A DNA stretch of 64,000 nucleotides from Candidatus Latescibacterota bacterium (GTDB taxonomy: Bacteria; Latescibacterota; UBA2968; GCA-2709665): assembly GCA_965208835.1 (NCBI GenBank), contig OZ242358.1:4064001-4128000 (forward strand). The letters are read 5' to 3'. A model generated the notes under the pieces. That model saw only the letters and a program-made list of their open reading frames with translations. It was not told where the DNA came from and searched no databases. Made by a program: the position numbers and the translations under genes. Below, piece by piece: positions 4,288-40,000 of this stretch. Positions within the stretch are counted from its first letter, which is position 1. Every line of letters starts with the position of its first letter.

Positions 4288-6771
4288 TCACGCGGTGCTC
4301 GTGCCGAACGCGCCGGCGAAAATCACGAAATCGCTGAACCCGACGGAGCCGTTGCCGTCCAGGTCGAACCGGGCGTCGTATTCGGCATCGCCCTGACCGC
4401 GCCCAAAGGCGGTGGCGAACAGCAGAAAGTCGCCGAAACCGACTTTCCCGTCGCCATCGAAGTCGGCTTGGGCTCTTCCCGTGGCACTAAACGTTACCGG
4501 ATCTGTATTTGAAACCGTTGCCACAACTGTGTTCGTCCCGGGTTGCCTGCCAAGCGTCAGCGTCGTGGCGGCGCGGCCGTCGGCACCTGTCGTGGCGTTG
4601 GCAACGGACAACGCGCCGCCGCCGGCTGCGACCGTGAAAGTGACCGCGGCGTCGGTAAGCGGATTCCCGTATTGATCCCGTACTTCAACCACCAGGTGCT
4701 GCGCCAGGGTGTCGCCGGGCGCGCCGTGCTGGCCGTTGCCGGAGATGATCTCAAGGGCGGCGGGACGGGGCACGGTCCATTCCGTGACGTCCCACAGAAT
4801 GACCGTATTGTCCGGTGCCCCGGAAGCAAGGGTGGTGCCGTCTGGTGAGAACGATACAGAATAGACCAAATTCGCAGCATGCCCTTGCAGTGTGGCTAAG
4901 GTGGCTCTGCTTGCCACGTCCCATAGCCAGACCGTACCCGCCGTTGACGCGGAAGCGAGAGTTTTTCCATCCGGAGAAAACGATAGCGAATAGACCCAAC
5001 CCCCATGCTCAAGGGAAGCGAGAGGAACTCTGCTCGCCACGTCCCACACCCGCACCGTACCATCAAAAGACCCGGAAACTAGGGATTTCCCATTAGGAGA
5101 AAATGAAACGGCGGCAACCAGGTCATTGTGCCTTCCCAATGCGACGATCTGTCGCCTGGACGCCACGTCCCACAACCGAACCGTATTATCAGAAGACGCG
5201 GAAGCGAGCGTCTTGCCATCCGGAGAAAACGATAGCGAAAAGACGCCTCTCTCATGACCTTCCAGGGTTCCAATCGGTTGTCCAGTTTCCACGACCCAAA
5301 GCCGGATGGGCTCATCTCCATATCCCGCGCCGGAAGCGAGCATGGTCCCATCCGGAGAAAACGATACGGTTTCGACATATTCCGTATGCCCCTCCAGGAT
5401 GCCAGTCTGTTCCCCGGTCCTCATGTTCCAGAGTCGTACGGCGCCATCTCCTGCTCCAGCAGCGAGAATGGTACCGTCCCGAGAAAATGATACCGCATAG
5501 ACCGGAATCCCAACTTCAAGGGTTGCGATGGGTGCGTGCGTCTCAACATTCCACAACCGCACCGTACCATCGACTGATCCAGAGGCAAGGTTGGTCCGGT
5601 CCGGAGAAAACGACACCTCCTCGACCCTTTTCGTATGTCCTTCAAGGTAAGCGATGGCCTGCTGCGGGATTTCCGAAAGGAAAAATTCCGTTTCGCCGAC
5701 GTCTCCATAAGTATCCACGGCCAGGACCGCAATCCGGTGCACGGCAGGGTCCGACAGGCTTGAACCCGGTTCGAAAGGGATACCGGCGTCATACTCGAAC
5801 TCGGTTACGACATCTGTTTCGCCCCTCAACCCACGGCATGACTTGAGTCCAGAGCTTCCGGTACCCACGTTGTCCCCTCCTGCTGTAGCAAAGAGGATCA
5901 CCTGGTGAATTCCCTCAGGATCAGTAACATTGAGTTGGACGGTGACACGCTCCGAACCTGCGGGATACCTATTCGAGGAAGTGTGTTCTACGGTGGGCGG
6001 CTTCCCCTCTTCGAACGGTACAGCGGGATTGAAGTAGGGATTGACAGCCAGGAATTCGGCGGCGCACGCAGAGAGGACCCCGCGCTGATCAAATCCATAC
6101 GACATGATGTACCGATTGTCTCTGAAATCGTGATTCAAGCCGAAGGTATGTCCAAGCTCGTGAGCCACCGTGAAGAATCGGACGCTGTGGGGAACCAATA
6201 TATGGCCGTTGTTTTTCGCCCCGGGAGATGTGAATCCTCCAGCAAATCTACCGCGTGCAAGAGGGATTTTATCGATACTAAGGTCAGTGACGATAAGGTA
6301 AATGTTGGCATCAAGATCAAACCTTTGTTCGATTTCAGAGACTGGCCAACCCCCGGTCGCGTAGTGGCTGTCTGTGTGTTGTCCGTCGACGTGATGCACG
6401 AGCGGCTCGCCGCGGGCATCGGTCTCAAAGCGGAAGGTCCTGTTGGCGTAGCCATGCGCCTCCATCTGCTCAGCGTAGAAGGTTCGAACTCGACGAATTA
6501 CAATCTTCATCGAATCCACCACTTCCTGGCGAAACGGCCGGTCGTTCGGCAAGAAGTAGATCATCCTCACGGTGCGCGGTTCGCCGACGTTCAGGCCCGC
6601 CTGGCGCTTGGCCGCTGGCCAAGCGCGAGCCCGCTGCGAGTGCCCGTGATCTTCAATGGCGCAAAAATGGATGCTGTCGGGAAGAACCGGCGACGCATTG
6701 GCAACCTGCATCGGCGTAAGGAGACAACCGATGAATACAAACTGAGCGGAATGAAAAACAAGAGGTTTCAT
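4288..6771 (-). CDS. Secreted metzincin zinc metallopeptidase + WD40 propeller + Ig-like (Big_1) + dockerin-like module (class B)
   Basis: HELGHTFGLNH plus Met-turn YIMSYG; about 7 WD40 repeats (GHxxxVxSVSFSPDGxxLASGSxDxTVRLWD); ISGNGQ...VRDQYGNP Big_1 motif; C-terminal DFDGDGKVGFGDF...DLDGNGSVGFSDF. Start at ATG 6771 gives a signal peptide. Confidence 0.85.
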   Translation of the reverse strand: MKPLVFHSAQFVFIGCLLTPMQVANASPVLPDSIHFCAIEDHGHSQRARAWPAAKRQAGLNVGEPRTVRMIYFLPNDRPFRQEVVDSMKIVIRRVRTFYAEQMEAHGYANRTFRFETDARGEPLVHHVDGQHTDSHYATGGWPVSEIEQRFDLDANIYLIVTDLSIDKIPLARGRFAGGFTSPGAKNNGHILVPHSVRFFTVAHELGHTFGLNHDFRDNRYIMSYGFDQRGVLSACAAEFLAVNPYFNPAVPFEEGKPPTVEHTSSNRYPAGSERVTVQLNVTDPEGIHQVILFATAGGDNVGTGSSGLKSCRGLRGETDVVTEFEYDAGIPFEPGSSLSDPAVHRIAVLAVDTYGDVGETEFFLSEIPQQAIAYLEGHTKRVEEVSFSPDRTNLASGSVDGTVRLWNVETHAPIATLEVGIPVYAVSFSRDGTILAAGAGDGAVRLWNMRTGEQTGILEGHTEYVETVSFSPDGTMLASGAGYGDEPIRLWVVETGQPIGTLEGHERGVFSLSFSPDGKTLASASSDNTVRLWDVASRRQIVALGRHNDLVAAVSFSPNGKSLVSGSFDGTVRVWDVASRVPLASLEHGGWVYSLSFSPDGKTLASASTAGTVWLWDVASRATLATLQGHAANLVYSVSFSPDGTTLASGAPDNTVILWDVTEWTVPRPAALEIISGNGQHGAPGDTLAQHLVVEVRDQYGNPLTDAAVTFTVAAGGGALSVANATTGADGRAATTLTLGRQPGTNTVVATVSNTDPVTFSATGRAQADFDGDGKVGFGDFLLFATAFGRGQGDAEYDARFDLDGNGSVGFSDFVIFAGAFGTSTA

Positions 6772-6949: not shown

Positions 6950-8617
6950 TCACTCTGTTTCCAGATGCCACTTCAATTTTGCGCCGTCAAGGTTTACCTT
7001 CACACCCTTCATTTTCAGTTCATCCAGCTTGACCGGCAAGTTCCCGCGCAGAAGAAAACCCTGATCTTCATACGGGCCGATGAGCGAATCTTCCTTGTTG
7101 TCCAGCTTGATCTTCCGTCCTGCTAATGTCGTAAAGACAATGTCCTTGAACTTGCGGGGCTTGCCAATGTCGGCGGTGGCGTAAGCCTTGCCCAGGATCT
7201 GTGTGGGGTCCAGAGAATAACGACTGGCAACAGCCGACGTCGTCCAACGCTGGCACGACATTTCAAGGGTCACGACCTCATCTCCGCGGTTGGTGCGCCC
7301 CACCACTCGCACCGGTTTGTCGAACACCTCGACCCTGGATCCGGTAAATGCGGCGATGCGATCGTCCAGCAGCGGGTGCGAGCGAAAAGCCCGCATATTC
7401 TTCTCGTCTCCCCCCAGGTAGTCCGTGTAATACCGGAGTTTCCTCAGCACCCGCGTCATTTCTGCAAGCCCCTCATCGCCGTATTGCCGCTCCAGATACA
7501 ACGCCGCCATCGCGTCGGCCTCTTCCTCCATCGATCGCGGATACCCTTCAAACAACACGTCCGTCGCCGCCTTGGCCAGGTCGTATGCGAGCCCTCCGAA
7601 GATTACTGCCTTTTTGATCTTATCCTTTTCTGATTTCTTCCCGGCAAGCACGCCCACTATCGCCCCCACGCCGGCTGCGATGGCCTGTTTCGTTCTCTCT
7701 TTGCGATAGATCCTGTAGCTGTGCCGCCGCTCGACGTGGGCGATTTCGTGTGCGATCACGCCCTCGATTTCCAGATCGCTCTCCGCCGCATCAATCAGAC
7801 CGCGATTAACAAAAATCAATCCCGTGGGAAGGGCGTATGCATTGACCTCATCGTCTTCCATTACCGAGAACCGATACTTGTACCCCTGAAGGGGAACCGG
7901 CCAGTTGTCCAGCACCCGCTGGCCGATCTCGCGCGCGCGCGACTGCAACGCGTCATCCGTCGCCAACTGTCCCATGCTTTGAATCTGCTGCGACGCATAT
8001 AGCGCCAACGTCCTTTCGGTCGCGTAGTCACTTACCAGCGGCATTCGCATGAAACACAGCTTGCACGCCCGCATGCCCGCGCCTTCCGCTTCGGCGTGTG
8101 TGTGAAAAGCCTGTCGTTTGTCTGCGTCGGGCAGATGATTGGACGAAGCCACGTGAAACACGTTACTGCTCGTATTCCCGATCAGGTTCGGCGGAACCTC
8201 GGTCTCCTCGCCAGTGCTGAAACACAGCGCGAATCCCGCGTCAAAGGCCGCCCGATTCAGGGGCGGCGAATGCAAGGGCGCGGAGAACGTCACCAGCCCC
8301 TTTCCCAGCCGTGCACTCCTGAGTTCGATTCTGAGCTCGTCGTCACGCACTTTGACAGACCTGATCATCACTGGTTCGTCCTTTTCAATGCGAAACAGGA
8401 CCGGATACTTCCGGGAATGCTGGAAATAGTAGACATTGCCGCCGTGCTCGTAGTACGTCATTGGATTCTGATGGATGCTCCCCCGGAGAATCAGGTTTCG
8501 GCCCTTTAGTTCCTTCTCTAACTCCTTTCCAAGACGCCCTGAGATCTTGCTTCCAAACACGTCGCCACTCGCGCACAAAATTAAAGCGACACACAGGAAA
8601 CGGATGAAATTGACCAT
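6950..8617 (-). CDS. M48 family zinc metallopeptidase with Ada-type metal-binding-like domain
   Basis: VNAYALPTG, VIAHEIAH, EEEAD and SHP motifs of M48; FH...EAEGAGMRACKLC resembles an Ada Zn-binding domain; signal peptide from ATG 8617 with AGGAG RBS. The upstream ORF extension lies in a MITE. Confidence 0.85.
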   Translation of the reverse strand: MVNFIRFLCVALILCASGDVFGSKISGRLGKELEKELKGRNLILRGSIHQNPMTYYEHGGNVYYFQHSRKYPVLFRIEKDEPVMIRSVKVRDDELRIELRSARLGKGLVTFSAPLHSPPLNRAAFDAGFALCFSTGEETEVPPNLIGNTSSNVFHVASSNHLPDADKRQAFHTHAEAEGAGMRACKLCFMRMPLVSDYATERTLALYASQQIQSMGQLATDDALQSRAREIGQRVLDNWPVPLQGYKYRFSVMEDDEVNAYALPTGLIFVNRGLIDAAESDLEIEGVIAHEIAHVERRHSYRIYRKERTKQAIAAGVGAIVGVLAGKKSEKDKIKKAVIFGGLAYDLAKAATDVLFEGYPRSMEEEADAMAALYLERQYGDEGLAEMTRVLRKLRYYTDYLGGDEKNMRAFRSHPLLDDRIAAFTGSRVEVFDKPVRVVGRTNRGDEVVTLEMSCQRWTTSAVASRYSLDPTQILGKAYATADIGKPRKFKDIVFTTLAGRKIKLDNKEDSLIGPYEDQGFLLRGNLPVKLDELKMKGVKVNLDGAKLKWHLETE

Positions 8618-8659
8618 TGCCGGACTCCTTTCTACGATGTTGTGGAGGGTTAGCAAAGT

Positions 8660-8856
8660 TAACCTTGATTCGTCATTTTTCCGGGACGTTAATTCGAATA
8701 TGTGCGAGTTAATAAAGGCGATTAGACTGCTGATTACCAGGATTGACCAGGACACCGTACGTGAACGGAAAAAATGTCCTTCAAGACGAACACTTCGGCC
8801 CGTTTCGAAAGGTTTCGTCGCAGTGCCGCGTTGCGGCTTTTGCGGAATTGAGGTTA
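8660..8856. mobile_element. MITE family 1, copy 1 (197 bp)
   Basis: Same-length, same-orientation, highly similar copy at 23614-23810; imperfect terminal inverted repeats TAACCTTGATTCG / GGAATTGAGGTTA; no transposase. Confidence 0.8.
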
Positions 8857-9982: not shown

Positions 9983-10032
9983 GCGCTCCTCCATGTTTGG
10001 AGAACTCCCGTCAGGTGACGTTGGTTACGATT

Positions 10033-11448
10033 TCAAACCCGGCCCGCCCCAAAAAACCCGATGGCGCCAACTCGGGGGCGCAGGTTTTCCAACGAGCCAA
10101 ACCCATCGACAAATCTGAAAAAGTCAGCGAAATTTACGACGCCGTTGCCGTCCAGGTCGAATTTGGCGTTTGTGCTGCCGTACGCGTCCGCAAAGAGGAA
10201 GAAATCCACGAAGTCGGTCCGTCCGTCGCCGTTGAAATCAGTTGAGGCCGGAGCTTGCACAAGCGGTGTTCCGCTACTTACGGCCGACCACGAACCGGGT
10301 CCCCGGTTGGTGACGGCACGCAACTGCAGGTCGTACCGGGCGCCGCCGGCCAACCCGGCCACCTCGTAAAACAGCGTGCCGGAACCGGTTGTCCGGACGT
10401 ACCGCAATACGGTCCAGTTGGCCTCGGCTTTGTCCGCGGCGTCGCTGCGAATGTAACGAACGTCATAGCCGGTGATAACCAATGTGCCGGTTTCGATCGG
10501 AGGTACGCGCCACGAGATGGTGAGCGAGCCGGTACCGGCTGTCACCGAAAGGATGGCCGGCGCGTCCGTGCGGAGCGTGAGGTCATAGGCATACAGCTTC
10601 TTGTCCACGTCGTCGGCCACCCACATCGTCGTGCCGTTCGACCAGATCCCGACCGGGTGGCTGTTCCCTGCTGCATTCAGCGAATTGACGTCCTGAAAGG
10701 GGTTCCGGCCATAGTACGTCAGATTGTAGGCATAGATCTTCGCGTCGGCGTAGTCCGCCACCCACATCGTCGTTCCGTCGGACCAGATGCCCCGCGGGTG
10801 GTTGTTCCCGGCGGACCCAAGCGCACTGACTTCCCTGCCGAGATCTGCAACCTCGAGCTCCATATCATAGGCATACAACCTGGCATCCGTGTAATCGGCC
10901 ACCCACATTGTCGTGTCGTTCGACCAGATACCCTCAGGGTTGTCGTTTCCAACACGCTCGAGCCCGTTGATGTCCCTGTCTGCGTTACGGGCTCCGGTCG
11001 ACAAATCGTAGGCGTAGACTTTCTCTCCGAACCACGGATCGTCTGCCACCCACATCGTCGCTCCGTCGGACCAGATGCCCTCAGGGTTGCGGTTTCCGGC
11101 GGCCGCCAGCGTATCGAAGTCCTTGTTGGCGGCCCGCGTGCCGGAAACCAGGTCATAAGCATACAGCTTGCCGTCAACTTTGTCGGCCACCCACATTGTC
11201 GTGCCGTCCGACCAGATGCCCTCAGGGTCGTTGTTTCCGGCGGCCGCCAACCCGTCGATATCCTTAGCAGCGTCCCGGGCGCAGCACTCCCCTCCGAAGA
11301 TTTCGTGTATCGAACGCAGCTTCACCTCATCCTGGCCGCCGACCGGCAGGTCGTTGCCCGTTTCCGGATAAATCCGCGACGCTGACAAGACCACAAGAAC
11401 CGAGGCGAAGAGCCCAATACTTGGTTTTCCGCTTCTCACAAATGGCAT
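10033..11448 (-). CDS. Secreted 5x GIWSDG-repeat propeller + fibronectin type III + dockerin-like module (class A)
   Basis: Five PxGIWSDGTTMWVAD...KxYAY repeats; FN3 (SLTISW...YDVRY...YDLQLRAV...GSWS); DFNGDGRTDFVDFF...DLDGNGVVNFADFF. Likely start ATG 11448. Confidence 0.8.
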   Translation of the reverse strand: MPFVRSGKPSIGLFASVLVVLSASRIYPETGNDLPVGGQDEVKLRSIHEIFGGECCARDAAKDIDGLAAAGNNDPEGIWSDGTTMWVADKVDGKLYAYDLVSGTRAANKDFDTLAAAGNRNPEGIWSDGATMWVADDPWFGEKVYAYDLSTGARNADRDINGLERVGNDNPEGIWSNDTTMWVADYTDARLYAYDMELEVADLGREVSALGSAGNNHPRGIWSDGTTMWVADYADAKIYAYNLTYYGRNPFQDVNSLNAAGNSHPVGIWSNGTTMWVADDVDKKLYAYDLTLRTDAPAILSVTAGTGSLTISWRVPPIETGTLVITGYDVRYIRSDAADKAEANWTVLRYVRTTGSGTLFYEVAGLAGGARYDLQLRAVTNRGPGSWSAVSSGTPLVQAPASTDFNGDGRTDFVDFFLFADAYGSTNAKFDLDGNGVVNFADFFRFVDGFGSLENLRPRVGAIGFFGAGRV

Positions 11449-11589
11449 TCTTCGGGTTTCCGACAATACAGACCGCGACCACCTGAACCGGTTTTGGTTC
11501 GCGCGCGAGTTTACCGGTTGCTCGACTGTCGAAGGGATTCGTCGGGCTTCGAACAAGACAGTGTAACTCGACGACGGCGCCAGAATCGC

Positions 11590-14500
11590 CTACGCACCAA
11601 ACGCATCGACGAATCTGAAGAAGTCAGCGAAATCCACGATGCCGTTGCCATCCAGGTCATAGCGTGGGTCCGTACTGCCGTACGCGTCGGCGAAAAGGAA
11701 GAAATCCACGAAGTCCGTCCGGCCATCGCCGTTGAAATCTGTCGCGGCCTGCCCACCGGATACGCCACTTCCGAATATCTCCAGGGGAAGGTCGGCGGAC
11801 TTGACGAAGGCGTATCCGGAATGTTTCGCGGGCAACGCCGGCAGTGTCCCTATATCCACGGTAGCGGCGAAAGTCGTGCCGGGCGTTCGTGTCACGGATA
11901 GCGTATCGCTTTCGAGGCTGCCAGCGGAAAGTGTGATCGTTGTTGCGCCGCCATTGATGCTGCCGTTCGCAACGCGAAGCGGCAGGACGACGTCAAACGG
12001 CGCGCCGGTTGGCGCCACTGCCTTGAACTGTCCTTCTCCGGTTTTCTCCAGGGATACATTGAGCGGTAGGGGATCGACTGCATTGCCGCCAAGGCGGAGT
12101 TCGGTCAGGGACGTCAGTCCTTCAAAGACGCCATCAGGAAGACTGGTTAGCTGATTGCCTGGCAGGTTGAGGCGCGTAAGACCGGTCAATCCGGAAAAAT
12201 CCCCCGGTTTCAACGCTGAGATGCTCTGGTAGCCGAGGCGAAGCTGGGTAATCGCGGCGAGATGCGCTTCGGTCACAATGCTGGAATCGCTGATGACCGG
12301 CACGGCGGCAACAATTCCATTGCGCACCTGTGCCGTACGTTCGCTTAGCGGCACGGCGGGCAGATTGCTGACCCTGGCTTCGGCGGACATCTCCCCCTCG
12401 CCCACGGTGTTCACCGCGCGAACCTCGAATGTGTATTGTGAAGGGTTGTTCAGGCCGATGACCGTGTAACCGGCCTCGTTATCTCCACCGGCGCCGCTGT
12501 CGGGAACAGGCATCCATGGACCGAATGATCCATTTCGGACCTTTTCCCGGTACTCGTGACCCGTAATTTCAATGCCGCCATCGCAAGGCGTGGTCCAATG
12601 CAGCCCAACCTGGTTCCCGTCGTTGATGGCGGTCACGATGGGGGCATCCGGGGCGGTAGGGTGAAGGGTAATTTTCCAGGAGTATTGAAAACCAACAGGC
12701 CAAACCATGTGAGATGTTTCGCGCCAAAGGTACCAACTTGCTCCGTAAGCCGAGCCCTCCCCTGCATCAGCTAACGCTAAACCACCACTCGAGGAAAGCT
12801 GACTAAAGGACATAAGTTTCCTGTCGCATGAAGAGAATCCGGGACTAATCAGGAGCGAAATCTGATGGGTGAGATTGTTACCGATACGCGATATACTGAT
12901 TCCATGGATTGTATATGTAGCGCCTCTATATGAGAACGTCGGGTTTGAAATTGAACCGGCATTGTGATGTCGACTGTAACCGAAACCCGTCGCATTGCCG
13001 TTATTGAAGTCATTCCCCCATGTACCTCCAGTGGAGGTTCCCGACCAGACCCGGGTTACGACAGCCCCGGCAGTGACCGCCAGCGGCAGGTCGGCGGACT
13101 TGACCAGCGCGTATCCGGAATGATTTGGGGGCAACGCCGGCAGTGTGCCTATATCCACGGTAGCGGCGAACGTCGTGCCGGGCGTACGCGTCACAGAAAG
13201 CGTATCGCTTTCGAGGCTGCCAGCGGGAATAGTGATTGTCGTCGCGCCGCCGCTGATGCTGCCGTTCGCAACGCGAAGCGGCAGGACGACGTCAAACGGC
13301 GCGCCGGTTGGCGCCACTGCCTTGAACTGTCCTTCTCCGGTTTTCTCCAGGGATACATTGAGCGGCAGGGGATCGACCGCGTTGCTGCCCAGGGAAAGCC
13401 TGGTCAGCCCGGTCAGTCCTACGAAGATGCTGTCGGGCAGCGCCGTCAGCCGGTTGCCGATCATGCGCAGATCCGTCAGTACGGTCAGTCCGTCAAGGAG
13501 GCCCGACGGCAGCGTCGTCATTCGATTGAGGCCGAAGCGGAGCGTTTGCAGCGACGAAAGCCCCCAGAAAATGTCCTCTGGCAGGCTGGTGAGTTGGTTG
13601 CCCCACAGTCGGAGTTCCTCCAGACTTGTGAGCCCATCGAAGTCTCCGGATTTCAATGATGAAATGCCTGTATCGTTGAGGTAAAGTGCGGTTATGCCAT
13701 CAAGGTGCGTCGCCGTGATTTGCGCAAAGCTCGAAACATTGGGGTCGTTCAATCGGACAACGCCGAGAATCGCATCTCGCACCTGCGACGTGCGCTGGCC
13801 GACCGGAGCAATGGACGCCGTCCACTCAGACACGTCCCAGAATTTGATCTGCCTGCTATTCGGCCTCGCATCATTGCCGATGAGCATTCTTCCGTCTGGA
13901 GAAAACGTCATGCGCCGCACGCCACCCGGCCCACCTGAAATGGACGCCAGGAGTTCGCTCTTCGAAATGTCCCATAGTTCAATCAGACCGAAAGCCGTCA
14001 CTGCGAGAGTGGCGCCATCCGGCGAAATCACCGGATAGGCACGATTGTAATCTCGCATATCGTTCACCGCGCCGGTCTGTACTCCTGTTGCCAGATCCCA
14101 GAGCTTCACTGCCCATGAAACGGGTGATGCGACGAGTGTCCCGTCCTTTGAAATCGCTACGGCTCCTTTTGCTCCAGTCTCTATGGTCCGAATCAGGGCT
14201 CTTGTGGACACGTTCCAAAGCCTGACAGTGCCGGTAACGGAAACGGAAGCAAGGTTCCCGTCGCGCACAAAGGCGATCTTGCCTACTCTTTCCGTGTGTC
14301 CTTCAAGGGTAGCGCCATTTGTCCAGGTCGCGACGTTCCACAACTTTACCGTACGGTCGAATGATCCGGAAGCGAGCATCGAACCATCCGAGGAAAAATC
14401 CAGAGACGCCACCTGATCAGCGTGTCCTGCCAGCGTCGCGACCTCTGTTTCACTGGTCACGTTCCACACTTTGATCGTGCCTTCCTTCGATCCCGCGGCG

Positions 14501-19052: not shown

Positions 19053-19073
19053 GAACGATACTCCTGTCCGGCT

Positions 19074-23606: not shown

Positions 23607-23613
23607 CAACGCT

Positions 23614-26650: not shown

Positions 26651-26739
26651 AAAAACTCCTCGTCCCAGGTACAAATCGAAATATGGTCGGGATTATTCTT
26701 CATCTGCAAATCGCTTGATTTCCCAATCGTTGCTGGCGA

Positions 26740-30332: not shown

Positions 30333-30758
30333 TCAATCGACCTCGTGAGCGGTCAGAAACATTGATTTTTCCAGGAACCTGAAAAACTTCTGGTAAATTG
30401 AAGGATCTTCGACTCCCTTGCGATTGTATTCCAGATTGGCGCGCACCTCGACCTGGGTTTCGCCCCTTGGACGTACGGTTACCGTCATTTGCGCCCAATC
30501 GTTCCTTCTTGTCGCGCTGATAACGCCGAGCACTTTATTGGCTTCGTCTATGAGAAAGTCGAAATCCTGAAGTGTGGATATTACACTCCTGAGTGCCTTT
30601 TTTTCGTCCGTGGTGTCAAATGCGCGGGTCTGCATGCTCCGCAGGTTGATTTGACTGGTGTCCATCTTCATCAATTGCCCTTTGGAAGTTGCGCATCCGG
30701 ACAAACCGACTGAAATCGCGGTGACAATTGCGGTGAACGCTATCCTGGAAAATCCCAT
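30333..30758 (-). CDS. Uncharacterised lipoprotein, paralogue 3
   Basis: Lipobox LSGC from ATG 30758; same conserved core; ends AHEVD like paralogue 2. Confidence 0.8.
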   Translation of the reverse strand: MGFSRIAFTAIVTAISVGLSGCATSKGQLMKMDTSQINLRSMQTRAFDTTDEKKALRSVISTLQDFDFLIDEANKVLGVISATRRNDWAQMTVTVRPRGETQVEVRANLEYNRKGVEDPSIYQKFFRFLEKSMFLTAHEVD

Positions 30759-30826
30759 ATTGCTGTTTACCTGGTGAATCACCGCTTGTATGGAAGCGAC
30801 GAGGTTAAGGCAGAAATAGCATCCAC

Positions 30827-31276
30827 TCAATCAACTTCATGAGCGGACAGGTAGATTGATTTTTCCAAAACGTTGAAGAAATTCTGATATACGAGCGGGT
30901 TTTTTACCGCTTTATCGTCGAACTGCGCGTTCGCTCGCACCAACAACTGGGTTTCGCCCCTCGGGCGGACCGTTACGGTGATCAGGAGCGGAAGTTTCTT
31001 CTTGGAAAACAGCTTATACTTTATGTCCGTTGTTCGGGCGCTGACCGTTCCGATCACTTCATTCGCCTCATTCACGATATAGCCCAGGTCCTGAAGTGTG
31101 GAAATCACAGTTCTGAGCATGCCTTCTTTATCGGTCGTGTCGAATGCACGGGTCTGCATGCTTCGCATCTCGACCTGGCTTTCGTCCATCTTCAACAGAT
31201 GCTCTTTCGATGACGCGCACGCGGAATAAACGAACAATGCGCCAATCGCGACCGCCAATTTCCCGGTTGCTGTCAT
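30827..31276 (-). CDS. Uncharacterised lipoprotein, paralogue 2
   Basis: Lipobox VYSAC; conserved core; ATGA overlap with the upstream gene. Confidence 0.8.
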   Translation of the reverse strand: MTATGKLAVAIGALFVYSACASSKEHLLKMDESQVEMRSMQTRAFDTTDKEGMLRTVISTLQDLGYIVNEANEVIGTVSARTTDIKYKLFSKKKLPLLITVTVRPRGETQLLVRANAQFDDKAVKNPLVYQNFFNVLEKSIYLSAHEVD

Positions 31277-31884
31277 ATTTCCTGCCCTTCCAACAGAATT
31301 GACTTTGAGAGTAGATCGAAGAACCTCTGGTACATCTCCGGTTCATCCAGGCTTTGGAGCCGTGCCACTTCGTCATCTGTATTCCAGACAATCCGCTGAA
31401 ACGTCACTCTTACGTAGTGTATGCTGTCGTTATCCTCCGACGGCCGACGGATTACGATGGACGCCCACAGCTTCTGATAGTCGTCGACGGCGGGTACGTG
31501 AAAGATCTGGTCAAAGACATCTCCGTCTTTCGCAGCAGCCGCAGCCATCACGCCGAGCAGGAACGTCGTCGCGCCAATCAGCACCTGCTCCGCGCGCTGC
31601 GCTGCGTCAGGATCCGCATCTCTGTCTTTTGCGCCAACGATAAGTCCGAGACTGGTCTCGCTCTCATCGATGATGAAACCCAGGTCCTGAATCACGCCGG
31701 TCGACGCGGACAAGAGATCGGCTTCCGAAATCCCTTCGTATTTTCTTGTCTGTAAAGCCCGGTTTTGCAATGACTCCGGAGTTAGTCTAAGGACATGCGA
31801 GGGCAGGCCGCCCCTGGCACAGCCTGTCAACACCAGAGCCGCCATGACCAGTGGCAATACTGGATGTATCCTTGCCCGGATCAT
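31273..31884 (-). CDS. Uncharacterised lipoprotein, paralogue 1 (with hydrophobic insertion)
   Basis: Lipobox LTGC; QTRKYE...IQDLGFII...YQRFFDLLSKSI; internal insertion VLIGATTFLLGVMAAAAA. Confidence 0.75.
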   Translation of the reverse strand: MIRARIHPVLPLVMAALVLTGCARGGLPSHVLRLTPESLQNRALQTRKYEGISEADLLSASTGVIQDLGFIIDESETSLGLIVGAKDRDADPDAAQRAEQVLIGATTFLLGVMAAAAAKDGDVFDQIFHVPAVDDYQKLWASIVIRRPSEDNDSIHYVRVTFQRIVWNTDDEVARLQSLDEPEMYQRFFDLLSKSILLEGQEI

Positions 31885-31946
31885 CCTGGGACCTCCTCTG
31901 TTTGGGCGGTCTCGCAACCAGCGCTTCGATACAGGGTTTGTACATT

Positions 31947-32564: not shown

Positions 32565-35500
32565 CTATCCCGAAGTCCCGAAGGCATCCACAAACTCAAA
32601 GAAATCTGCAAAGTTCACGATGCCGTTGTCGTCAAGGTCGTATTTCGCGTCCGTGGTGCCGAAGGCGTCCACGAAGTCGAAGAAGTCCGCGAAGTTCACG
32701 ATGCCGTCGCCGTTGAAGTCCGCCGTCTTCTGTCCCTGGGTCTGAGTGCAGTCCGGCAAATTGAGCTTGTCCAGATCATTTTGGGAAACGTCCCTCAATG
32801 ATGGCGGGACGCAACCTGTCAGCGAGTTCCCCGAGAGATACAGCAGGCCCAATCTGGCCAGTCCGCTCAATGTCGAGGGAATGGACCCGGTCAGCCTGTT
32901 GTCGTCCAGGCGCACTTCCTGCAGCAGACTCAGATTTCCCAGATCCGCGGGGATCGTACCGGTAAACCTGTTGCCAAATATGAGCAGCTGCCACAGTTCG
33001 GTCAGGTTGCCCAACTCAGTCGGGATTGCGCCGGTCAACTGGTTCTCGTAGAGGTTCAGTATCTGCAAGCGGCGCAGGGTACCAACCCACGACGGGAAAT
33101 TGCCGGTCAACCCATTGATCTGAAGGGCAAACTTTCGAAGGTTGGTCAGGTTTTTCAGCTCCGCGGGGATGGTACCGGTCAAACGGTTGCTCGGAAGAAC
33201 CAAATGGGTCAGGCCGGTCATCGTACCCAGCGCCGCGGGGATGGTCCCTGTCAACTGGTTGTAGCCGAATTGCAACGCGTTCAGGCCGGTCAGGCGGCTC
33301 AACCCGGCCGGAATGGTTCCGTTCAGGCTCTTGTTCCAGAGTCTCAAGTTCGTTACGCGCTGCGGCGTGCCGCTTATCGTAACGCCGTCCCACGTCGCGA
33401 TCGCGGTATTCTCCGACCAGTTCAGCGACGCTGTCCCTCTCAGGGGATCCCTCGCCTCCAGCAGCACATTGCAGTCGGAGACCAGCCACGGGTTGGCGGC
33501 AGGATTCGGCACGGCGCTTCCGGTCGCGCACGGCCCCTGCGGCGCCGGCGGCGTGGGAGCGGCGGCGACCGCGAGGGCCAGACCGAATGGATTGTCCAGG
33601 CCATCGGATCCGGTCACAAGGTCTTCCACGTTTGAACCGTCCAGATCGGCGCGCTGGATCCTGTCATTGTCCAGGTCCGTCCAGTACATCTTGCCCGCGG
33701 CCAGGTCCAAGTCCACCTCGACTGGTTTGGCCAGACCGCGGGTGATGACGTCTTCGATATTGGAGCCGTCAAGGTCGGCTCGCTGAATCACGCCTGTTTC
33801 GCGATCCGTGAAGTACATCTTGCCGTGTACCACGTCCAGCGCCAGACCGCTGGGACTCCCGAAACCGCTGGTGATCAGGTCTTCCACGTTAGAGCCGTCC
33901 AGGTCCGCACGCTGGATCTTGTCGGCCGACGAGTCCGTCCAGTACATCTTGCCGCCGGACACGTCCAGAACCAGGCCGGCCGGGCTGTTCAACCCCCCGG
34001 CGACCACCAGGTTCTCAACGTTGGAGCCGTCCAGGTCCGCACGCCGGATCCTGTCCGTACCCCAGTCGGTCCAGTACATCTTGCCGCCGGACACGTCCAG
34101 CGCCAGCCAGACCGGCGTGTCCAAACCGCTGGTGATCAGGTCTTCGACGTTCGAGCCGTCAAGGTCAGCACGCCGGATCTTCTGCGTGCCCGAATCGGTC
34201 CAGTACATCTTCCCGGCAGACAGGTCCACTGCCAACCCGACCGGGGTATTCAGACCGCTGGTGACCACGTCTTCCACGTTCGAGCCGTCCAGGTCCGCAC
34301 GCTGGATCTTCTGCGTGCCCCAGTCCGTCCAATAAAGCTCCGGATTCGCCTGCGGTTCGTTCACGTCGGTCAGGTTGATCGTCACGTCTATCGTGGCACT
34401 GCCGCCCTGGCCGTCGGACACCCGCACCGTCACGTCGTAGCGGTTCTTCACCTCGTAGTCGTAGATGACGCCCGTTTTGGTCTGCAACTGGCCGCTGGTT
34501 GAGACGAGGACGAAACTCGCGGCATCCGTACCCTCCAGGCTGTAGGAGAGTGTTCCACCGTCGCCATCCGTCGCACGAATCGGGCCGCCGACGTTCTGTC
34601 CCGCTGGCGTATTCTCTGCGAAGCTGCGCGTTGTGCTGGCGCCTTCGCTAAACGTCGGTACGTGATTCGTCCCTCCGCCTACCTCCGCGGTAACCGGCAA
34701 CTGCGCCGTCAGCGACGCCCCACTGTAATTCGCGATTGCCCCGGCGCCCACCGTGAACGTCAGCGTGCCGTCGGTGTCAATGTCGCCGTTAAAGGTCAGC
34801 GTGACTGTCACCTTCGTGTCGCTCACGCGCTGGACACCGAACGCGCCCACGCTCACGCCGGTAATGCCCGATACTGTCACACCACCCCGAACGTCGAAAA
34901 TGGAACTTGCGTACGCGCCGCCCGTAAGTGTCAATGTGACGACGCTGCCGTTCAGCGTCGCCTCGGTCAATGGAGACGGCGTCGACGCCGTCACCGATTC
35001 CATCCCCGCGCTCACCGGCAGTGTCGCGATGAGTGCGAGACCGCTGTAGTTCGCGATCGCGTCCGCGCCCACGGTGAACGTCAACGTGCCGTCCGCGTCG
35101 ATATCGCCATTGAAGTCCAGTTCAACCGTCACCTTCGTGTCGCTCACACGCTGGATACCGAACGTGCCAACGCTCACGCCCGTAATCCCCGATACGGACA
35201 CACCGCGCCGGACGTCGAAGATAGAACTCGCGTAGGAACGACCCGAAAGCGTGAGTGTCACAACGCTCCCGTTCAACGTCGCCTCCGTCAAGGACTGCGC
35301 CACTGTCGCAACAACGGTTTCCTCCAGGGCAACTACATCTACCTGGTCCGTAAGCGCGGGTCCGCTGTAGTTCGCGAGTGCCCCCGCGCCCACGGTGAAT
35401 GTCAACGTGCCGTCCGCGTCGATGTCGCCATTGAAGTCCAGTTCAACCGTCACTTTCGTGTCGCTCACACGCTGCACCCCGAAAGTGCCTACGCTCACGC

Positions 35501-37040
35501 CGGTAATTCCCGACACCGACACCCCGTCGCGGACGTCGAAGGTAGAACTCGCGTATCTCGCCCCGGTAAGCGTCAACGTCACCACGCTCCCGTCCAGCGT
35601 TGCCTCCGTCAATGGCGAAACCGTTGTGGCGGTAACCGATTCCATCGCCGCGGCCACTGAAAGTTGTGCCGAGAGCGCGGGCCCGTTATAATTCGCGAGT
35701 GCCCCCGCGCCCACGGTGAACGTCAGCGTACCGTCGCTGTCGATGTCGCCGTTGAACGTCAGCTCAACCGTTACCACCGTATCACTCTTCCGCTGCACGC
35801 CGAACGTGCCCACACTCACACCCGCAATACCCGACACGGACACCGCATCTCGGACGTCGAAGATGGAACTCGTGTATTTTCCTCCGGTGAGCGTCAACGT
35901 TACCAGACTCCCGTTCAGCGTCGCTTCGGTTAACGGTGATGCCGTTGTTGCCGTCAACGTCTCCATGGCAGCACTTACCGGCAACTGCGCGGTCAGTGCG
36001 GACCCGGTGTAATTCGCGATCGCGTCCGCGCCCACCGAGAACGTCAACGTGCCGTCGCTGTCTATGTCGCCGTTGAACGTCAGCTCAACCGTTACCACCG
36101 TATCACTCTTCCGCTGCACGCCGAACGTTCCAACGCTCACCCCGGCAATGCCCGATACTGACACGCCGTCACGAACGTCGAAGATCGAGCTCTCATATAG
36201 GCCACCAGTCAGCGTAAGCGTCACCACGCTCCCATTCAGCGACGATTCGGTCAACGGCGACGTCGTCGTCGCCGTCACCGATTCCATCCCCGCGCTCACG
36301 GTCAACTCTGCGGTCAACGCGGCGCCGTTGTAGGACTCGATCGCGTCGGCGCCCACTGTAAACGTCAGCGTACCGTCGCTGTCGATGTCGCCGTTGAAAT
36401 CCAACTCAACCGTCACCGTGGAATCGCTCACGCGTTGCACGCCGAACGTGCCCACGCTAACGCCCGCAATTCCGGACACCGAAACGCCGTCACGAACGTC
36501 GAAGATCGAACTCTCGAAATCTCGTCCGGAAAGCGTCAACGTCACCACGCTCCCGTCCAGCGTCGCTTCGGTCAACGGCGACACTGTCGATGCCTCCACC
36601 GTTTCTTCCACCGACGGGATAGACAAATCTCTCGTTAGCGCGGCGCCGTTGTAAGACGCGATGGCTCCCGCGCCAACCGTGAACGTGAGCGTTCCTTCTT
36701 CGTCGAAGTCTCCGTTGAAGTCCAGTTCTATCGTCAATTTGGTATCGCTTGCACGCGTTATCCCGAACGTCCCCACGCTAACGCCTGCAATCCCCGATAC
36801 CGTTACCGCCCGACGGATGGAGAAGATAGACCGCTCGAAAGTACGCCCGGCAAGCGTCACGGTAACCTCGCTGCCATCCAGCGTCGCCTCGGTCAACGGA
36901 CTTGACGTCGACACGGTGATCGACTCCTGAACCGCAGGAACGGGAACCTGGGCGTTTCCCGAAACCGGCAGGGCGAATGCCGCCACAACGACTCCCAACG
37001 TCATCACGGCGGATCGCCAATTCCAAACTCTCCGTTCCAT
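32565..37040 (-). CDS. Giant secreted adhesin-like protein: 7x 107-aa beta repeats + cadherin + YWTD propeller + plant-type LRR + dockerin
   Basis: Seven PLTEATLxGSxVTLTL...TFTVGA repeats; cadherin motifs (ENT, ATDGD, DYE, DVNE); six YWTD-type repeats; LRRs; DFNGDGIVNFADFF twice. Confidence 0.85.
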   Translation of the reverse strand: MERRVWNWRSAVMTLGVVVAAFALPVSGNAQVPVPAVQESITVSTSSPLTEATLDGSEVTVTLAGRTFERSIFSIRRAVTVSGIAGVSVGTFGITRASDTKLTIELDFNGDFDEEGTLTFTVGAGAIASYNGAALTRDLSIPSVEETVEASTVSPLTEATLDGSVVTLTLSGRDFESSIFDVRDGVSVSGIAGVSVGTFGVQRVSDSTVTVELDFNGDIDSDGTLTFTVGADAIESYNGAALTAELTVSAGMESVTATTTSPLTESSLNGSVVTLTLTGGLYESSIFDVRDGVSVSGIAGVSVGTFGVQRKSDTVVTVELTFNGDIDSDGTLTFSVGADAIANYTGSALTAQLPVSAAMETLTATTASPLTEATLNGSLVTLTLTGGKYTSSIFDVRDAVSVSGIAGVSVGTFGVQRKSDTVVTVELTFNGDIDSDGTLTFTVGAGALANYNGPALSAQLSVAAAMESVTATTVSPLTEATLDGSVVTLTLTGARYASSTFDVRDGVSVSGITGVSVGTFGVQRVSDTKVTVELDFNGDIDADGTLTFTVGAGALANYSGPALTDQVDVVALEETVVATVAQSLTEATLNGSVVTLTLSGRSYASSIFDVRRGVSVSGITGVSVGTFGIQRVSDTKVTVELDFNGDIDADGTLTFTVGADAIANYSGLALIATLPVSAGMESVTASTPSPLTEATLNGSVVTLTLTGGAYASSIFDVRGGVTVSGITGVSVGAFGVQRVSDTKVTVTLTFNGDIDTDGTLTFTVGAGAIANYSGASLTAQLPVTAEVGGGTNHVPTFSEGASTTRSFAENTPAGQNVGGPIRATDGDGGTLSYSLEGTDAASFVLVSTSGQLQTKTGVIYDYEVKNRYDVTVRVSDGQGGSATIDVTINLTDVNEPQANPELYWTDWGTQKIQRADLDGSNVEDVVTSGLNTPVGLAVDLSAGKMYWTDSGTQKIRRADLDGSNVEDLITSGLDTPVWLALDVSGGKMYWTDWGTDRIRRADLDGSNVENLVVAGGLNSPAGLVLDVSGGKMYWTDSSADKIQRADLDGSNVEDLITSGFGSPSGLALDVVHGKMYFTDRETGVIQRADLDGSNIEDVITRGLAKPVEVDLDLAAGKMYWTDLDNDRIQRADLDGSNVEDLVTGSDGLDNPFGLALAVAAAPTPPAPQGPCATGSAVPNPAANPWLVSDCNVLLEARDPLRGTASLNWSENTAIATWDGVTISGTPQRVTNLRLWNKSLNGTIPAGLSRLTGLNALQFGYNQLTGTIPAALGTMTGLTHLVLPSNRLTGTIPAELKNLTNLRKFALQINGLTGNFPSWVGTLRRLQILNLYENQLTGAIPTELGNLTELWQLLIFGNRFTGTIPADLGNLSLLQEVRLDDNRLTGSIPSTLSGLARLGLLYLSGNSLTGCVPPSLRDVSQNDLDKLNLPDCTQTQGQKTADFNGDGIVNFADFFDFVDAFGTTDAKYDLDDNGIVNFADFFEFVDAFGTSG
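34690..36930. repeat. Tandem coding repeat, 7 x 321 bp
   Basis: Antisense shadow ORFs recur at about 321-bp spacing (e.g. 35395, 35716); protein repeats are highly similar. Confidence 0.9.
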
Positions 37041-37053
37041 AAGTCAGCATCCC

Positions 37054-40000
37054 CTATTCAAAAGTGCCTCGCGTGACACGTCCTCCCTCGATGCTGCATC
37101 CGCCGGCAGAAACACAGGTGTATCTGGTTCCGTCCTGCAGCTCGATCAGGCCGCCGTTCTGGAAGCTGAGTACCGCGCGCCCCCCGCTGATTGTAAGGCT
37201 CGCATTCCGAATGAGCCTGGGCACGAAGAAGCCGGTGGGGAAGTTCGGAAGCACGTCACCGACGCCCCAGGTTCCGCCGCCGTTACCGCCTGCGGCGCCT
37301 ACGGCCAGTCCGGATGGGTCGACCAGCCCGTTGGCGCTCGTCAGGAGGTCTTCGACGTTGGACCCGTCCAGATCCGCGCGCTGCACCCTGTCGGCATCCA
37401 CGTCCGTCCAGTACATCTTGCCGCCCGAAACATCAAGGTCCAGCCCGTTGGGAGTCGTCAGACCGGTGGCAACCAAATCTTCAACACCGGAACCGTCCAG
37501 ATTTGAGCGCTGGATCTTGCGGTTTCCGCGGTCCGTCCAGTACATCTTGCCGCCCGACAGATCCAGGGCAATGCCGGTTGGGCTACTCAGTCCACTGGTC
37601 ACGAGGTCTTCCAGATTGGAGCCGTTCAGGTCCGCACGCTGGATCTTGTCCGACCCGGGATTCGTCCAGTACATCTTTCCATTGGCCACGTCGAGTGCGA
37701 TTTCACCAGGAAATGCCAGGCCGGCCAGCGTGAGGAGGTCTTCAACGTTGGAACCGTCCGGGTCCGCGCGCTGGATCTTTCCGTTCTGCCGGTCCGTCCA
37801 GTATATCTTGCCGCCGGACACGTCAAGCGCCAGACCGTACGGCACGCTCAGGCCGCTTGTGATGACGTTCTCCACGTTCGAGCCGTCCAGATCCGCACGC
37901 TGGATCTTTGCCGTACCCGCGTCCGTCCAGTAAATCTTGCCGCCCGATATATCCACGGCCAATCCGTCCGGGCCGTTCAGGCCCGCGCTGCTGACCAGGT
38001 CTTCGACGTTGGATCCGTCCAGATCCGCGCGCTGGATCTTGTCAGTACCCCAATCCGACCAGTACAGTTTCGACGTACCCGTGGCGGGGGGCGTCGTCGC
38101 CGCAACAGTAATGCTTACCGCGGCGGAGCAGTTGTTTCCTGTGTCGGATTCACCGGATACCGCATCCACACAGGCGCCGTAGTAGTAGGTGCCGGAATTC
38201 GAAGGCGCCGTCAGGTCAATCGCCAAAGCCAGATCAATCGATCCGGGATTCCCTCCCGACGCCGCAAGGCCGTTCACCGCGTCCGTTCCAACTTCCGTGT
38301 CGGACGTTGAGATGCTCGCGTCGACCGACATATAGTAGCGCAACGTCGTAGCCGCCGACATCTGATCGCCCTGGTTGCGAACTGACGCGCCCAGCCTGAA
38401 GGTGTCGCCGGCAGCCGGGCTGCTGTTGCTGACGAAAGGCGAAACGACAACCAGGTCGGCACCGCCTCCACCCCCGCCGCCGGAACCGCCACCCCCGCCG
38501 CCGGACGCCGTCGCCAGGGCCAGACCCGACGGGTCCACCAGCCCGTTGGCTCCGGTTACCAGGTCTTCCACGTTGGAGCCGTCCAGGTTGGCGCGTTGAA
38601 CCTTATTCGTGCCGGTGTCGGCCCAGTACATTTTCCCTCCGGACACGTCGAGAGCCAGGCCATTCGGTCGATCCAGACCGCTGGTGACAAGGTCTTCGAC
38701 ATTGGCCCCACTGAGGTCCGAACGCTGGATCTTGTCCGAACGCCTGTCCGTCCAGTACATCTTGCCCCCGGAAACATCGAGTGCGATCCCGGTCGGACTG
38801 TCTACGCCCCTGGTGACGAGGTCTTCGACTCCTGATCCATCCAGGTTGGACCGCTGAATCCTGTTCGCGCCCGGATTGGTCCAGTACATCTTGCCGCCAG
38901 ACACGTCCAGGGCCAGACCGCCGGGAAACGTCAGACCGCTGGTGATCAGGTCTTCCGCGTTGGCGCCGTTGAGGTCGGCACGTTGTATCTTGTTCGTCTG
39001 CCGGTTCGTCCAGTACATCTTGCCGCCAGACACGTCCAGGGCCAGACCGTACGGTATTCCCAGGCCCGTTACCAGGTCTTCCACGTTCCCGCCATTGAGA
39101 TCAGCACGCTGGATCTTGTTGGCGCCCGCATCCGTCCAGTACATCTTGCCGCCTGCCATATCCAGCGCCAAACCGTCCGGCCCGTCCAGTCCGCCGCCGG
39201 AGACCAGGTCTTCCACCCCCGAGCCGTCCAGGTTGGCGCGCTGGATCTTGTCGGTTCCCCAGTCCGTCCAGTAGAGTTTGGAAGCTCCAGGGGTGGGCGG
39301 TGGTGGCGCCGCAGCAACCGTCAGGGCAACGGCGGGCGAACAGTTGTTCCCCGTATTGGACTCGCCGGAAACCGCGTCGACACACGCGCCGTAGTAGTAG
39401 GTTCCCGAACTGGAAGGCGCCGTCAGGTTGATCGACTCCGCGCTAACGCCGCCGGCAGAGAGTCCGCTCACCGCGTCAGTGCCTGCTTGCGTGTCGCTGG
39501 TGTTCACTGTCGCGTCGGTCGAACGGTAGTAGCGCAAGGTCGTCGCGGCAGACGTTCCGTTACCCTGGTTCCGGACTGTCGCGCCAAGCGTAAAGGTCGC
39601 CCCGTGCGATACGCGACTGCTGCTCAGAGAAGGGGACTGAACGACCAGATCCGGGTTGCCGCTACCACCACCCCCACCGCCCGGCGATGGCGGTGGACCT
39701 CCAAAGCCTTGCGCGAAGATCAGAAAATCCGTAAAGTCAACCGAACCATCGGAATTCAGGTCCTGCGCGGCATTGTACCTCCCGTCGCCCTGCCGCGACC
39801 CGAACGCGCCCGCAAAAATCAGAAAGTCCGAAAATCCGACGAAATCATCGCCGTCGAAGTCGGGAGAGGGCGCCGAGTTAAACGTAACCTCACTGCTTGT
39901 CCTGAGTTCGTCGCTCGAGGTGGGACTTTCCGCGAGGGTAACCGACTCGATGCCTATGGCGAATTCCCGGCCGGTTACGTCCGCAACGGTCGTAAACTCC

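Follow-up and report, generated by a model that had tools for sequence, protein, structure and literature searches.

We analysed a window of 64,000 nucleotides from the genome of a Candidatus Latescibacterota bacterium (NCBI GenBank assembly GCA_965208835.1, contig OZ242358.1; G000 below), which holds a cluster of genes for proteins bearing cohesin modules (sockets) and dockerin modules (plugs). The window comprises bases 4064001–4128000 of a single 5.18-Mb contig of ∼60% GC, the genome is rated 97.8% complete, and close homologues of the encoded proteins carry the source names ‘Gemmatimonadota bacterium’ or ‘Candidatus Latescibacteria bacterium’. Every gene of the cluster lies on the minus strand. 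The dockerins fall into two sequence classes, A and B, and the open reading frames (ORFs), each named by its lower window coordinate, can be described as one anchor, two adaptors and a set of cargo proteins:

40533–41342, minus strand: anchor, 269 aa, with a signal-peptide-like N-terminus, a cohesin at aa 22–178 (40809–41279) and a type IX secretion system (T9SS) type A C-terminal domain (CTD) at aa 187–266.

37054–40386, minus strand: mono-cohesin adaptor, 1110 aa, with a signal peptide, a cohesin (39871–40314) and a class B dockerin (39700–39861); the rest of the body is a Gly/Pro linker, two CARDB domains and YWTD (LDL-receptor class B) propellers.

32565–37040, minus strand: giant variant class A cargo, 1491 aa, with ∼107-aa repeats, cadherin-like sequence, YWTD propellers and leucine-rich repeats (LRR); dockerin at ∼32568–32726.

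26740–29616, minus strand: class A cargo, 958 aa, WD40 propeller and LRR; dockerin at 26743–26895.

23855–26674, minus strand: class A cargo, 939 aa, GLUG motifs and calcium-loop repeats; dockerin at 23858–24010.

22260–23609, minus strand: class A cargo, 449 aa, containing fn3; dockerin at 22263–22415.

19074–21095, minus strand: class A cargo, 673 aa, WD40 propeller; dockerin at 19077–19229.

15891–19052, minus strand: di-cohesin adaptor, 1053 aa, with a signal peptide, cohesins at 18531–18980 and 18087–18530 and a class B dockerin (17916–18077); the rest of the body holds CARDB, a YWTD propeller and a weak leishmanolysin-like stretch.

11590–15894, minus strand: class A cargo, 1434 aa, WD40 propeller and LRR; dockerin at 11593–11745.

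10033–11556, minus strand: class A cargo, 507 aa, containing fn3; dockerin at 10093–10245, followed by a 19-residue tail.

4288–6894, minus strand: class B cargo of the ordinary genome-wide type, 868 aa, WD40 propeller; C-terminal dockerin at ∼4291–4464.

The anchor gene stands directly upstream of the mono-cohesin adaptor gene, and the di-cohesin adaptor gene lies among those of the cargo. ORF 32565 starts 13 bp downstream of the mono-cohesin adaptor gene and ORF 15891 overlaps the next class A gene by 4 bp (15891–15894), which suggests co-translation or an operon structure. The N-terminal cohesin domains of the adaptors are ∼148 aa each, two in ORF 15891 and one in ORF 37054, and in both proteins the class B dockerin follows directly. 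Within ORF 32565, aa ∼100–760 consist of at least six tandem ∼107-aa repeats, each closing in a calcium-loop-like FNGDIDxDGTLTF motif. A Pfam scan of 15 proteins, including all those of the cluster, identified WD40, LRR, Ldl_recept_b, fn3, GLUG, CARDB and cadherin families in the cargo and adaptor bodies, with no glycoside hydrolase or carbohydrate-binding module (CBM) among the matches (for four of the proteins, among the best 25 families). Because the cargo consists of WD40, LRR, YWTD, fn3 and GLUG proteins and no glycoside hydrolases were seen, the cluster is scaffold-like but not a cellulosome.

An earlier interpretation of this DNA, made from the letters alone (the sequence-only reading), had recognised two dockerin classes and four cohesins. 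Both hold up: the cohesins (one in ORF 40533, one in 37054, two in 15891) are confirmed by predicted fold, and the seven class A and three class B modules differ in the spacing of their two calcium loops, which is 27 residues in class A and 33 in class B, the class B linker being six residues longer. All the modules are present in the ORFs that it named, although the positions it gave for ORFs 15891 and 37054 are ORF ends, whereas the class B modules there are internal (aa 326–379 and aa 176–229, respectively); in ORF 4288 the class B module is C-terminal. The translations and their alignment give a class A consensus of TDFNGDGRTDF[VI]DFFLFADA[YF]GST...DLDGNG.V[DN]FADFF[KR]FVD[AG]FG. Six modules, the core six, are C-terminal in the minus-strand ORFs 10033, 11590, 19074, 22260, 23855 and 26740, that of ORF 10033 ending 19 residues short of the C-terminus, and the variant in ORF 32565 is 62–71% identical to them.

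It had also been proposed that the residue pairs at positions 10/11 separate the classes. Within the window the pairs are as proposed, FV, FI or FA in class A and FS, FG or FT in class B, but they are not diagnostic, since genome-wide FA also occurs in 15 long-linker and 5 other short-linker repeats. The discriminating residues are instead Phe14, found in both repeats of all seven class A modules and in none of the 70 other modules with standard spacing, and Asp18, found likewise in both repeats of 7/7 class A modules and in at most one of those 70. Together with acidic helices and the short linker, these two residues distinguish class A.

Are the class A modules dockerins at all? They show the tandem ∼22-residue unit of calcium loop and helix (F-hand) with Asp/Asn at positions 1, 3, 5, 9 and 12 that characterises dockerins, and the pattern D1, N/D3, D/N5, D/N9, D12 recurs in both repeats of all seven modules; in the long-linker class, to which class B belongs, Gly is the commonest residue at position 9 (30/55 and 34/55 in the two repeats). 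The Pfam model Dockerin_1 (PF00404) matches 7/7 class A modules at E≤1, with a best value of 2.9e-5 and 0.0077 for ORF 22260. When a class A profile was compared with the PDB, the sole match covering two repeats was a cellulosomal dockerin, 2y3n_B (E 1.2e-4). A different reading, in which the modules are calcium-binding tails serving stability, sorting or a host or matrix ligand, draws on the remaining numbers: the first class A module scores 20.1 bits on Dockerin_1, under the 22.9 cut-off, with EF-hand and FG-GAP models comparable, and most of the PDB profile matches are single calmodulin loops. Set against this are the duplicated loop–helix unit with its Asp/Asn pattern, the Dockerin_1 matches of all seven modules, the two-repeat match to 2y3n_B and the strict linkage of class A modules to cohesin genes, and we consider a non-cohesin role very improbable. 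The class B modules of the adaptors also fall under the Dockerin_1 cut-off (18.9 bits for ORF 15891; 19.5 bits, E 0.0011, for ORF 37054), and long-linker modules elsewhere in G000 pass it, with 27.0 and 24.0 bits. In the adaptors the dockerin is preceded after ∼5 residues by a cohesin, not by an X module, which in type II dockerins stabilises the binding to type II cohesins, and an AlphaFold2 (AF2) model of the ORF 37054 cassette places two helices where the dockerin is expected.

The cohesins are of two kinds. That of the anchor scores 20.4–22.2 bits on Pfam Cohesin (PF00963), under the cut-off of 24.1, and a paralogue at genome positions 628504–628827, 59% identical, passes with 31.5 bits. 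The nine top sequence matches of the anchor family profile in the PDB are all cohesins (E 0.003–1), and the AF2 model of the domain (predicted local distance difference test score, pLDDT, 83.3) has cohesins as its top Foldseek matches, mostly type II cohesins of anchoring scaffoldins (probability 1.00, E ∼1e-7). The adaptor domains are divergent. At E≤10, Pfam returned no family for any of the three in ORFs 37054 and 15891, a sequence-profile search of the PDB gave no cohesin match for the adaptor domain, and hhalign aligned it with the anchor family at a probability of just 0.9%. The AF2 model of ORF 37054 aa 25–235, built on a 32-row alignment, has a pLDDT of 93.9 and shows 10 strands followed by two helices; its top Foldseek matches in the PDB are almost all cohesins (3kcp, 4fl4, 6kgc, 2vo8, 2vn5, 5m2s and others; probability 1.00, E 2e-6 to 4e-4), with a target-normalised template-modelling (TM) score of up to 0.66 and type I or III cohesins as the best matches. 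The adaptor-domain family is small: a search of 1.84 billion proteins gave 186 representative clusters at E≤0.001. Of its distant members, P0246 passes Pfam Cohesin with 38.1 bits and P0130 and P0209 are borderline (23.2 and 20.5 bits), and some relatives carry 2–5 copies of the domain plus a T9SS sorting domain. Since sequence searches with the adaptor domain itself failed, its link to cohesins rests on the predicted fold and on these distant family members.

Adaptor-type cohesins occur in four G000 proteins, ORFs 15891 and 37054 and those at genome positions 462698 and 1250453, each time followed by a long-linker dockerin. Two further, weak cohesin and dockerin cassettes were found in this genome (Pfam Cohesin E 0.0065 and 0.012). 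The adaptor cassette of cohesin and class B dockerin is inherited as a unit in 628 database proteins. Of anchor-type cohesins G000 has five paralogues, one of which is interrupted by an in-frame TAG, and two giant proteins hold distant copies. The TAG-containing paralogue (genome 2404743–2405210, plus strand) is likely a pseudogene and is flanked by two proteins with internal long-linker dockerins. The two giant proteins (∼1600 aa; genome 4916887–4921761 and 4927282–4931952, minus strand) each contain a dockerin-like module of atypical form, followed directly by a cohesin that passes the Pfam cut-off and by a T9SS sorting domain; this combination of plug, socket and export tag within one protein is kept in many relatives.

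The anchor appears equipped for export to the cell surface. Its CTD scores 29.7 bits on TIGR04183 (aa 187–266; cut-off 23), and the genome bears the translocon, with a SprA_N match of 99.7 bits to its SprA. About 4 kb upstream of the anchor gene lies a further gene relevant to this route:

45253–51033, minus strand: PorU-like C25 peptidase, 1926 aa, with a propeptide and a T9SS sorting domain of its own.

The product of ORF 45253 has an E of 5.6e-69 on Pfam Peptidase_C25 and exceeds the TIGR04183 cut-off (31.9 bits against 23), while remaining below those of NF033707 (PorU; 312.6 bits, cut-off 420) and NF052324 (213 bits, cut-off 450); it is a candidate sortase for the attachment of CTD proteins. 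Between this gene and the anchor are two paralogous minus-strand genes (42608–43333 and 43510–44493) with similar AraC-type C-termini, the first of which combines a response-regulator receiver with an AraC-type helix-turn-helix; the pair are possible regulators of the cluster.

To place the two classes in their genomic context, a hidden Markov model (HMM) built from the ten window modules was run against six-frame ORFs of G000 and near-full-length modules were counted. The census gave 80 dockerin modules: 55 long-linker, 22 short-linker and 3 atypical. The long-linker modules stand at the N-terminus (20), internally (11) or at the C-terminus (24) of their proteins, and 51 of the 55 are on proteins without a recognised cohesin. 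Class B is thus the default, generic dockerin of this genome, and the proposal that it marks adaptors fails. Nor do the adaptor dockerins form a distinct subgroup, that of ORF 15891 being 75–76% identical to five cargo dockerins and 73% identical to the nearest adaptor dockerin. Class A, by contrast, is a special, cluster-confined class. All seven modules of G000 lie within ∼27 kb, and elsewhere the genome has only two half-module remnants, at 1255656–1255982 and 4423500–4423910, both on the plus strand. Both remnants close otherwise featureless ORFs, as decayed class A genes, and one adjoins the adaptor gene at genome position 1250453. This clustering, like the distribution of Phe14 and Asp18, is no product of chance.

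The class A modules are also uniform. Pairs of them are on average 84% identical (89% within the core six), whereas pairs of long-linker modules average 54%. At the protein level identities range over 82–98% while synonymous sites have diverged, third-codon-position identity among the core six being only 47–78%, with the pair 23855/26740 at the upper value. Gene conversion was considered as the source of the uniformity and rejected on account of these third-position identities. The 60 residues upstream of the modules are unrelated except in two pairs. Because the protein sequence is nearly unchanged while third positions have diverged, and the bodies are mostly unrelated, the uniformity bears the mark of selection for a common surface and not that of recent conversion.

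The same pattern bears on the possibility that the classes have no binding orthogonality and simply record module ancestry, one lineage having been shuffled onto neighbouring genes, so that both classes bind the same cohesins similarly. Cross-reactivity between cohesins and dockerins within a species is common, and other clusters of G000 have locally homogeneous dockerin subfamilies too, with four N-terminal modules at 5132–5137 kb and three at 922–936 kb. Shuffling of this kind sits poorly, however, with near-constant class A proteins on unrelated bodies, and with the persistence of class A across genera. In addition, the class residues at helix positions 14 and 18 adjoin recognition sites named in the accessible part of PMC8063739. 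We therefore regard the absence of orthogonality as improbable. Net charge, which was judged by eye, is acidic for both the adaptor cohesin and class A and is uninformative on pairing. A complex prediction of three chains, one cohesin of each type with a class A dockerin as partner, run without controls, scored 0.02, below the mark, and weighs neither for nor against binding.

The cluster was then compared across 41 related genomes, 22 of one family (f1) and 19 of a sister family (f2), with class A scored as present at ≥80% identity; being relatives, these are not independent samples. Class A occurs in 15 of the 41, and all 15 also have adaptor cohesins. Twelve of them belong to the genus of G000, which is represented by 15 genomes (G000 itself counted); one more, G016, stands for a different genus within the family, and the last two, with a single copy apiece, come from the sister family. 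Adaptor cohesins are found in 35/41 genomes and anchor cohesins in 41/41, including the 26 without class A. Six genomes contain anchor cohesins (3–11 matches) and dockerins (19–35 matches) but neither adaptor cohesin nor class A, and anchor-type cohesins would therefore serve generic dockerins. Within f1, the class A count follows the adaptor-cohesin count (Spearman 0.83) but not the anchor count (0.18), a comparison that overstates independence, since the genomes share ancestry and the genes form a single block.

Ten class A clusters in nine genomes were compared for synteny. In these, every adaptor whose dockerin is complete (17 of 17) has one of the long-linker type, never class A, and all 49 class A modules are C-terminal, 48 of them on proteins without a cohesin. 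The division proposed by the sequence-only reading thus stands for adaptors and for class A cargo, even though class B is no mark of an adaptor. The sole protein with both class A and a cohesin is a 180-aa ORF in G030 (L018, 2136–2675, minus strand), a recombinant of the anchor gene. For ∼137 residues it is a near-identical copy of the adjoining anchor gene; at a GDG motif common to both modules it then passes into the class A dockerin, which leaves the cohesin truncated. As a recombinant or pseudogene it was rejected as a natural test of the wiring.

The order of genes is also retained. The layout of anchor, mono-cohesin adaptor, variant class A, class A cargo, di-cohesin adaptor and class A cargo recurs in G000, G002, G008, G009 and G014, with variants of it in G016, G029 and G030. 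A gene of the variant class A kind comes immediately after that of the mono-cohesin adaptor in G000, G002, G007, G008, G009 (two clusters) and G014, and after an adaptor gene in G016; orthologous di-cohesin adaptors lie inside the class A clusters of G002, G008, G009, G014 and G004. The pair of anchor gene followed by adaptor gene is widely conserved. Thirty such pairs were examined, two of them at contig ends, and an FF-type dockerin gene is present in the cluster for 21 of the other 28, usually directly after the adaptor, and absent in 7.

These patterns lead us to a model of ordered assembly. The cluster probably hangs non-enzymatic repeat proteins on the cell surface. The anchor (ORF 40533) would leave through the T9SS and become attached to the outer membrane, perhaps by the neighbouring PorU-like protein; the adaptors would plug their generic class B dockerins into anchor-type cohesins; and class A cargo would plug into the adaptor-type cohesins, giving an ordered and partly orthogonal assembly in which class A is the private plug of the cluster and class B has no adaptor-specific meaning. 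The absence of class A from every adaptor is what one would predict if proteins do not bear plugs matching their own sockets. The sequence and distribution data favour this as the most economical model, ahead of its rivals, because anchors alone suffice in genomes without adaptors and class A, because class A is found only in genomes that have adaptors, and because of this self-avoidance. Nevertheless, we hold the full description, an ordered, hierarchical, non-cellulosomal cohesin–dockerin display system tied to the T9SS, only tentatively, at slightly less than an even chance.

Several observations weigh against the ordered model. The sequence-only reading had named, as an outcome that would speak against it, class membership that is random genome-wide with respect to cohesin-containing proteins, and the result is close to that: proteins with a cohesin carry 4 long-linker and 0 other modules, those without carry 51 and 25, and the association is not significant (Fisher one-sided p=0.22; p=0.067 in the window alone). 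In f2, adaptor cohesins are present in 19/19 genomes and class A in 2/19, and many of the adaptors there are solitary or form tandem arrays with no cargo in the vicinity; class A therefore cannot be the general ligand of adaptor cohesins. Synteny and co-occurrence, moreover, cannot tell apart the two kinds of cohesin within a cluster, since anchor and adaptors are passed on together in a single block. This block inheritance and the f2 adaptors without class A hold our estimate of the ordered model where it is. In G000 itself, the adaptors at 462698 and 1250453 belong to clusters whose cargo has long-linker dockerins, and the cohesin of ORF 37054 is 75% identical to that of the 462698 adaptor, the neighbours of which all have long-linker dockerins, but only 68–69% identical to those of ORF 15891, although the two ORFs share a cluster.

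The last two points would fit an inverse wiring, in which class A cargo docks on the anchor-type cohesin of the cluster (ORF 40533 and its orthologues), while the adaptor cohesins take long-linker dockerins, either of generic cargo or of other adaptors. Synteny ties class A to the anchor gene no less than to the adaptor genes, and adaptors elsewhere in G000 and across f2 accompany only long-linker dockerins. Yet anchor-type cohesins are present in every genome, with or without class A, and the class A count does not follow theirs; each adaptor would, in addition, bear a dockerin of the class bound by its own cohesin. We judge this wiring unlikely.

The tandem arrays raise another alternative, head-to-tail chains. 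Here the cassette of cohesin and class B dockerin would be self-complementary in trans, so that adaptors polymerise on the anchor, and class A would be a later add-on of one genus that binds any free socket. In G034, an f2 genome, up to four adaptor genes stand in tandem with no other dockerin cargo nearby, two or three adaptors follow an anchor in a row in G002, G004, G005, G006 and G016, and the inheritance of the cassette as a unit also counts in favour of chains. Known scaffoldins, to our knowledge, avoid self-binding plugs, which speaks against chains; there is no evidence for polymerisation, and the short linker between cohesin and dockerin says nothing on binding in trans. Chain formation accordingly receives little weight from us.

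A further difficulty for the ordered model is how the cargo would reach the surface. Of the 24 T9SS sorting domains over cut-off in G000, 7 are on cohesin-bearing ORFs, whereas among the 80 dockerin ORFs only 2 have one, both of which also carry cohesins. The 78 untagged dockerin proteins have signal-peptide-like N-termini, and no secretin (PF00263) was detected in single-contig G000. The T9SS exports folded proteins and requires a CTD, according to the accessible part of PMC9251779. Given the untagged dockerin proteins, the undetected secretin and the share of cohesin carriers among the tagged proteins, dockerin cargo may bind CTD-bearing cohesins in the periplasm, directly or via adaptors, and cross the T9SS translocon as a folded complex, although we consider such co-export distinctly unlikely. 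If it were true, the split between class A and class B would decide which cargo leaves on which carrier.

Other genes in and beside the cluster may be noted. An outer-membrane beta-barrel-like ORF (21139–22200, minus strand; Pfam OMP_b-brl E 6.5e-5, under cut-off) lies among the class A cargo genes, and a second ORF, at 3500–4162 on the minus strand, was judged beta-barrel-like by eye. Two small minus-strand ORFs between class A genes (30333–30830 and 31273–31917) have signal- or lipoprotein-like N-termini and similar C-terminal motifs. An M48 metalloprotease gene (6950–8755, minus strand), BepA/LoiP-like and far under the equivalog cut-offs, separates the class B WD40 gene from the class A genes.

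The system shares its cohesin and dockerin folds with the clostridial and ruminococcal cellulosomes (C. thermocellum type I/II; A. cellulolyticus ScaA–ScaB–ScaC; R. flavefaciens ScaA/ScaB/ScaC), as well as the use of proteins with both cohesin and dockerin as adaptors and the presence of distinct dockerin classes in one organism, here known from sequence. Ordered assembly through non-cross-reacting pairs is a textbook principle of cellulosomes, as set out in the available portion of PMC8063739. The anchor cohesin is nearest to type II, the type of anchoring scaffoldins, and the adaptor cohesin to type I or III. The parallel is no more than suggestive: in B. cellulosolvens the types are reversed, so that the type does not fix the role (PMC8063739, in the same portion). 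The differences from cellulosomes are as marked. The lineage is of diderm type, with T9SS anchoring in place of S-layer homology (SLH) domains or sortase; the cargo consists of repeat proteins, with no glycoside hydrolase or CBM among the cluster Pfam matches listed; and the adaptors are large, cargo-like proteins with an N-terminal cohesin–dockerin cassette, the cohesins of which are invisible to Pfam.

Another counterpart is the cellulosome-like system inferred for ‘Ca. Stygibacter’ (Cloacimonadota), which has a tandem-cohesin scaffoldin with a T9SS CTD, as far as the accessible part of PMC8542988 describes it. Both have a T9SS CTD on cohesin proteins for surface attachment outside Firmicutes, and dockerins on secreted proteins. 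The ‘Ca. Stygibacter’ system, as described there, has hydrolase and peptidase cargo and a single giant scaffoldin with CBMs, whereas the system described here has single-cohesin anchors, a separate adaptor tier, non-enzymatic cargo and a cluster-private dockerin class. A literature search found no paper on cohesin–dockerin systems in Gemmatimonadota or Latescibacteria and none, among the matches listed, that connected dockerins to symbionts of sponges. Peer et al. (2009) reportedly described cohesin- and dockerin-like modules outside cellulosomes in all three domains of life, and the present cluster shares with that subject the occurrence of such modules on proteins that are not connected with the degradation of polysaccharides. 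The system differs from its known counterparts in the non-enzymatic repeat-protein cargo, the separate adaptor tier on single-cohesin anchors, the Pfam-invisible adaptor cohesins and the cluster-private dockerin class; its logic is that of multi-tier cellulosomes.

The failure of class B as a mark of adaptors lowers the finding as first written. If the wiring of the ordered model holds, however, this would be a three-tier plug-and-socket system outside Firmicutes, anchored by the T9SS, which shows eukaryote-like binding proteins (WD40, LRR, LDL-receptor YWTD, fn3, cadherin) instead of enzymes and has a private dockerin class that is nearly unchanged across genera. It would offer new orthogonal cohesin–dockerin pairs for protein engineering and pose the concrete question of how untagged cargo crosses the outer membrane. 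The assembly logic of the cellulosome would then extend, in a lineage not yet cultured, to adhesion at the cell surface or to interaction with a host.

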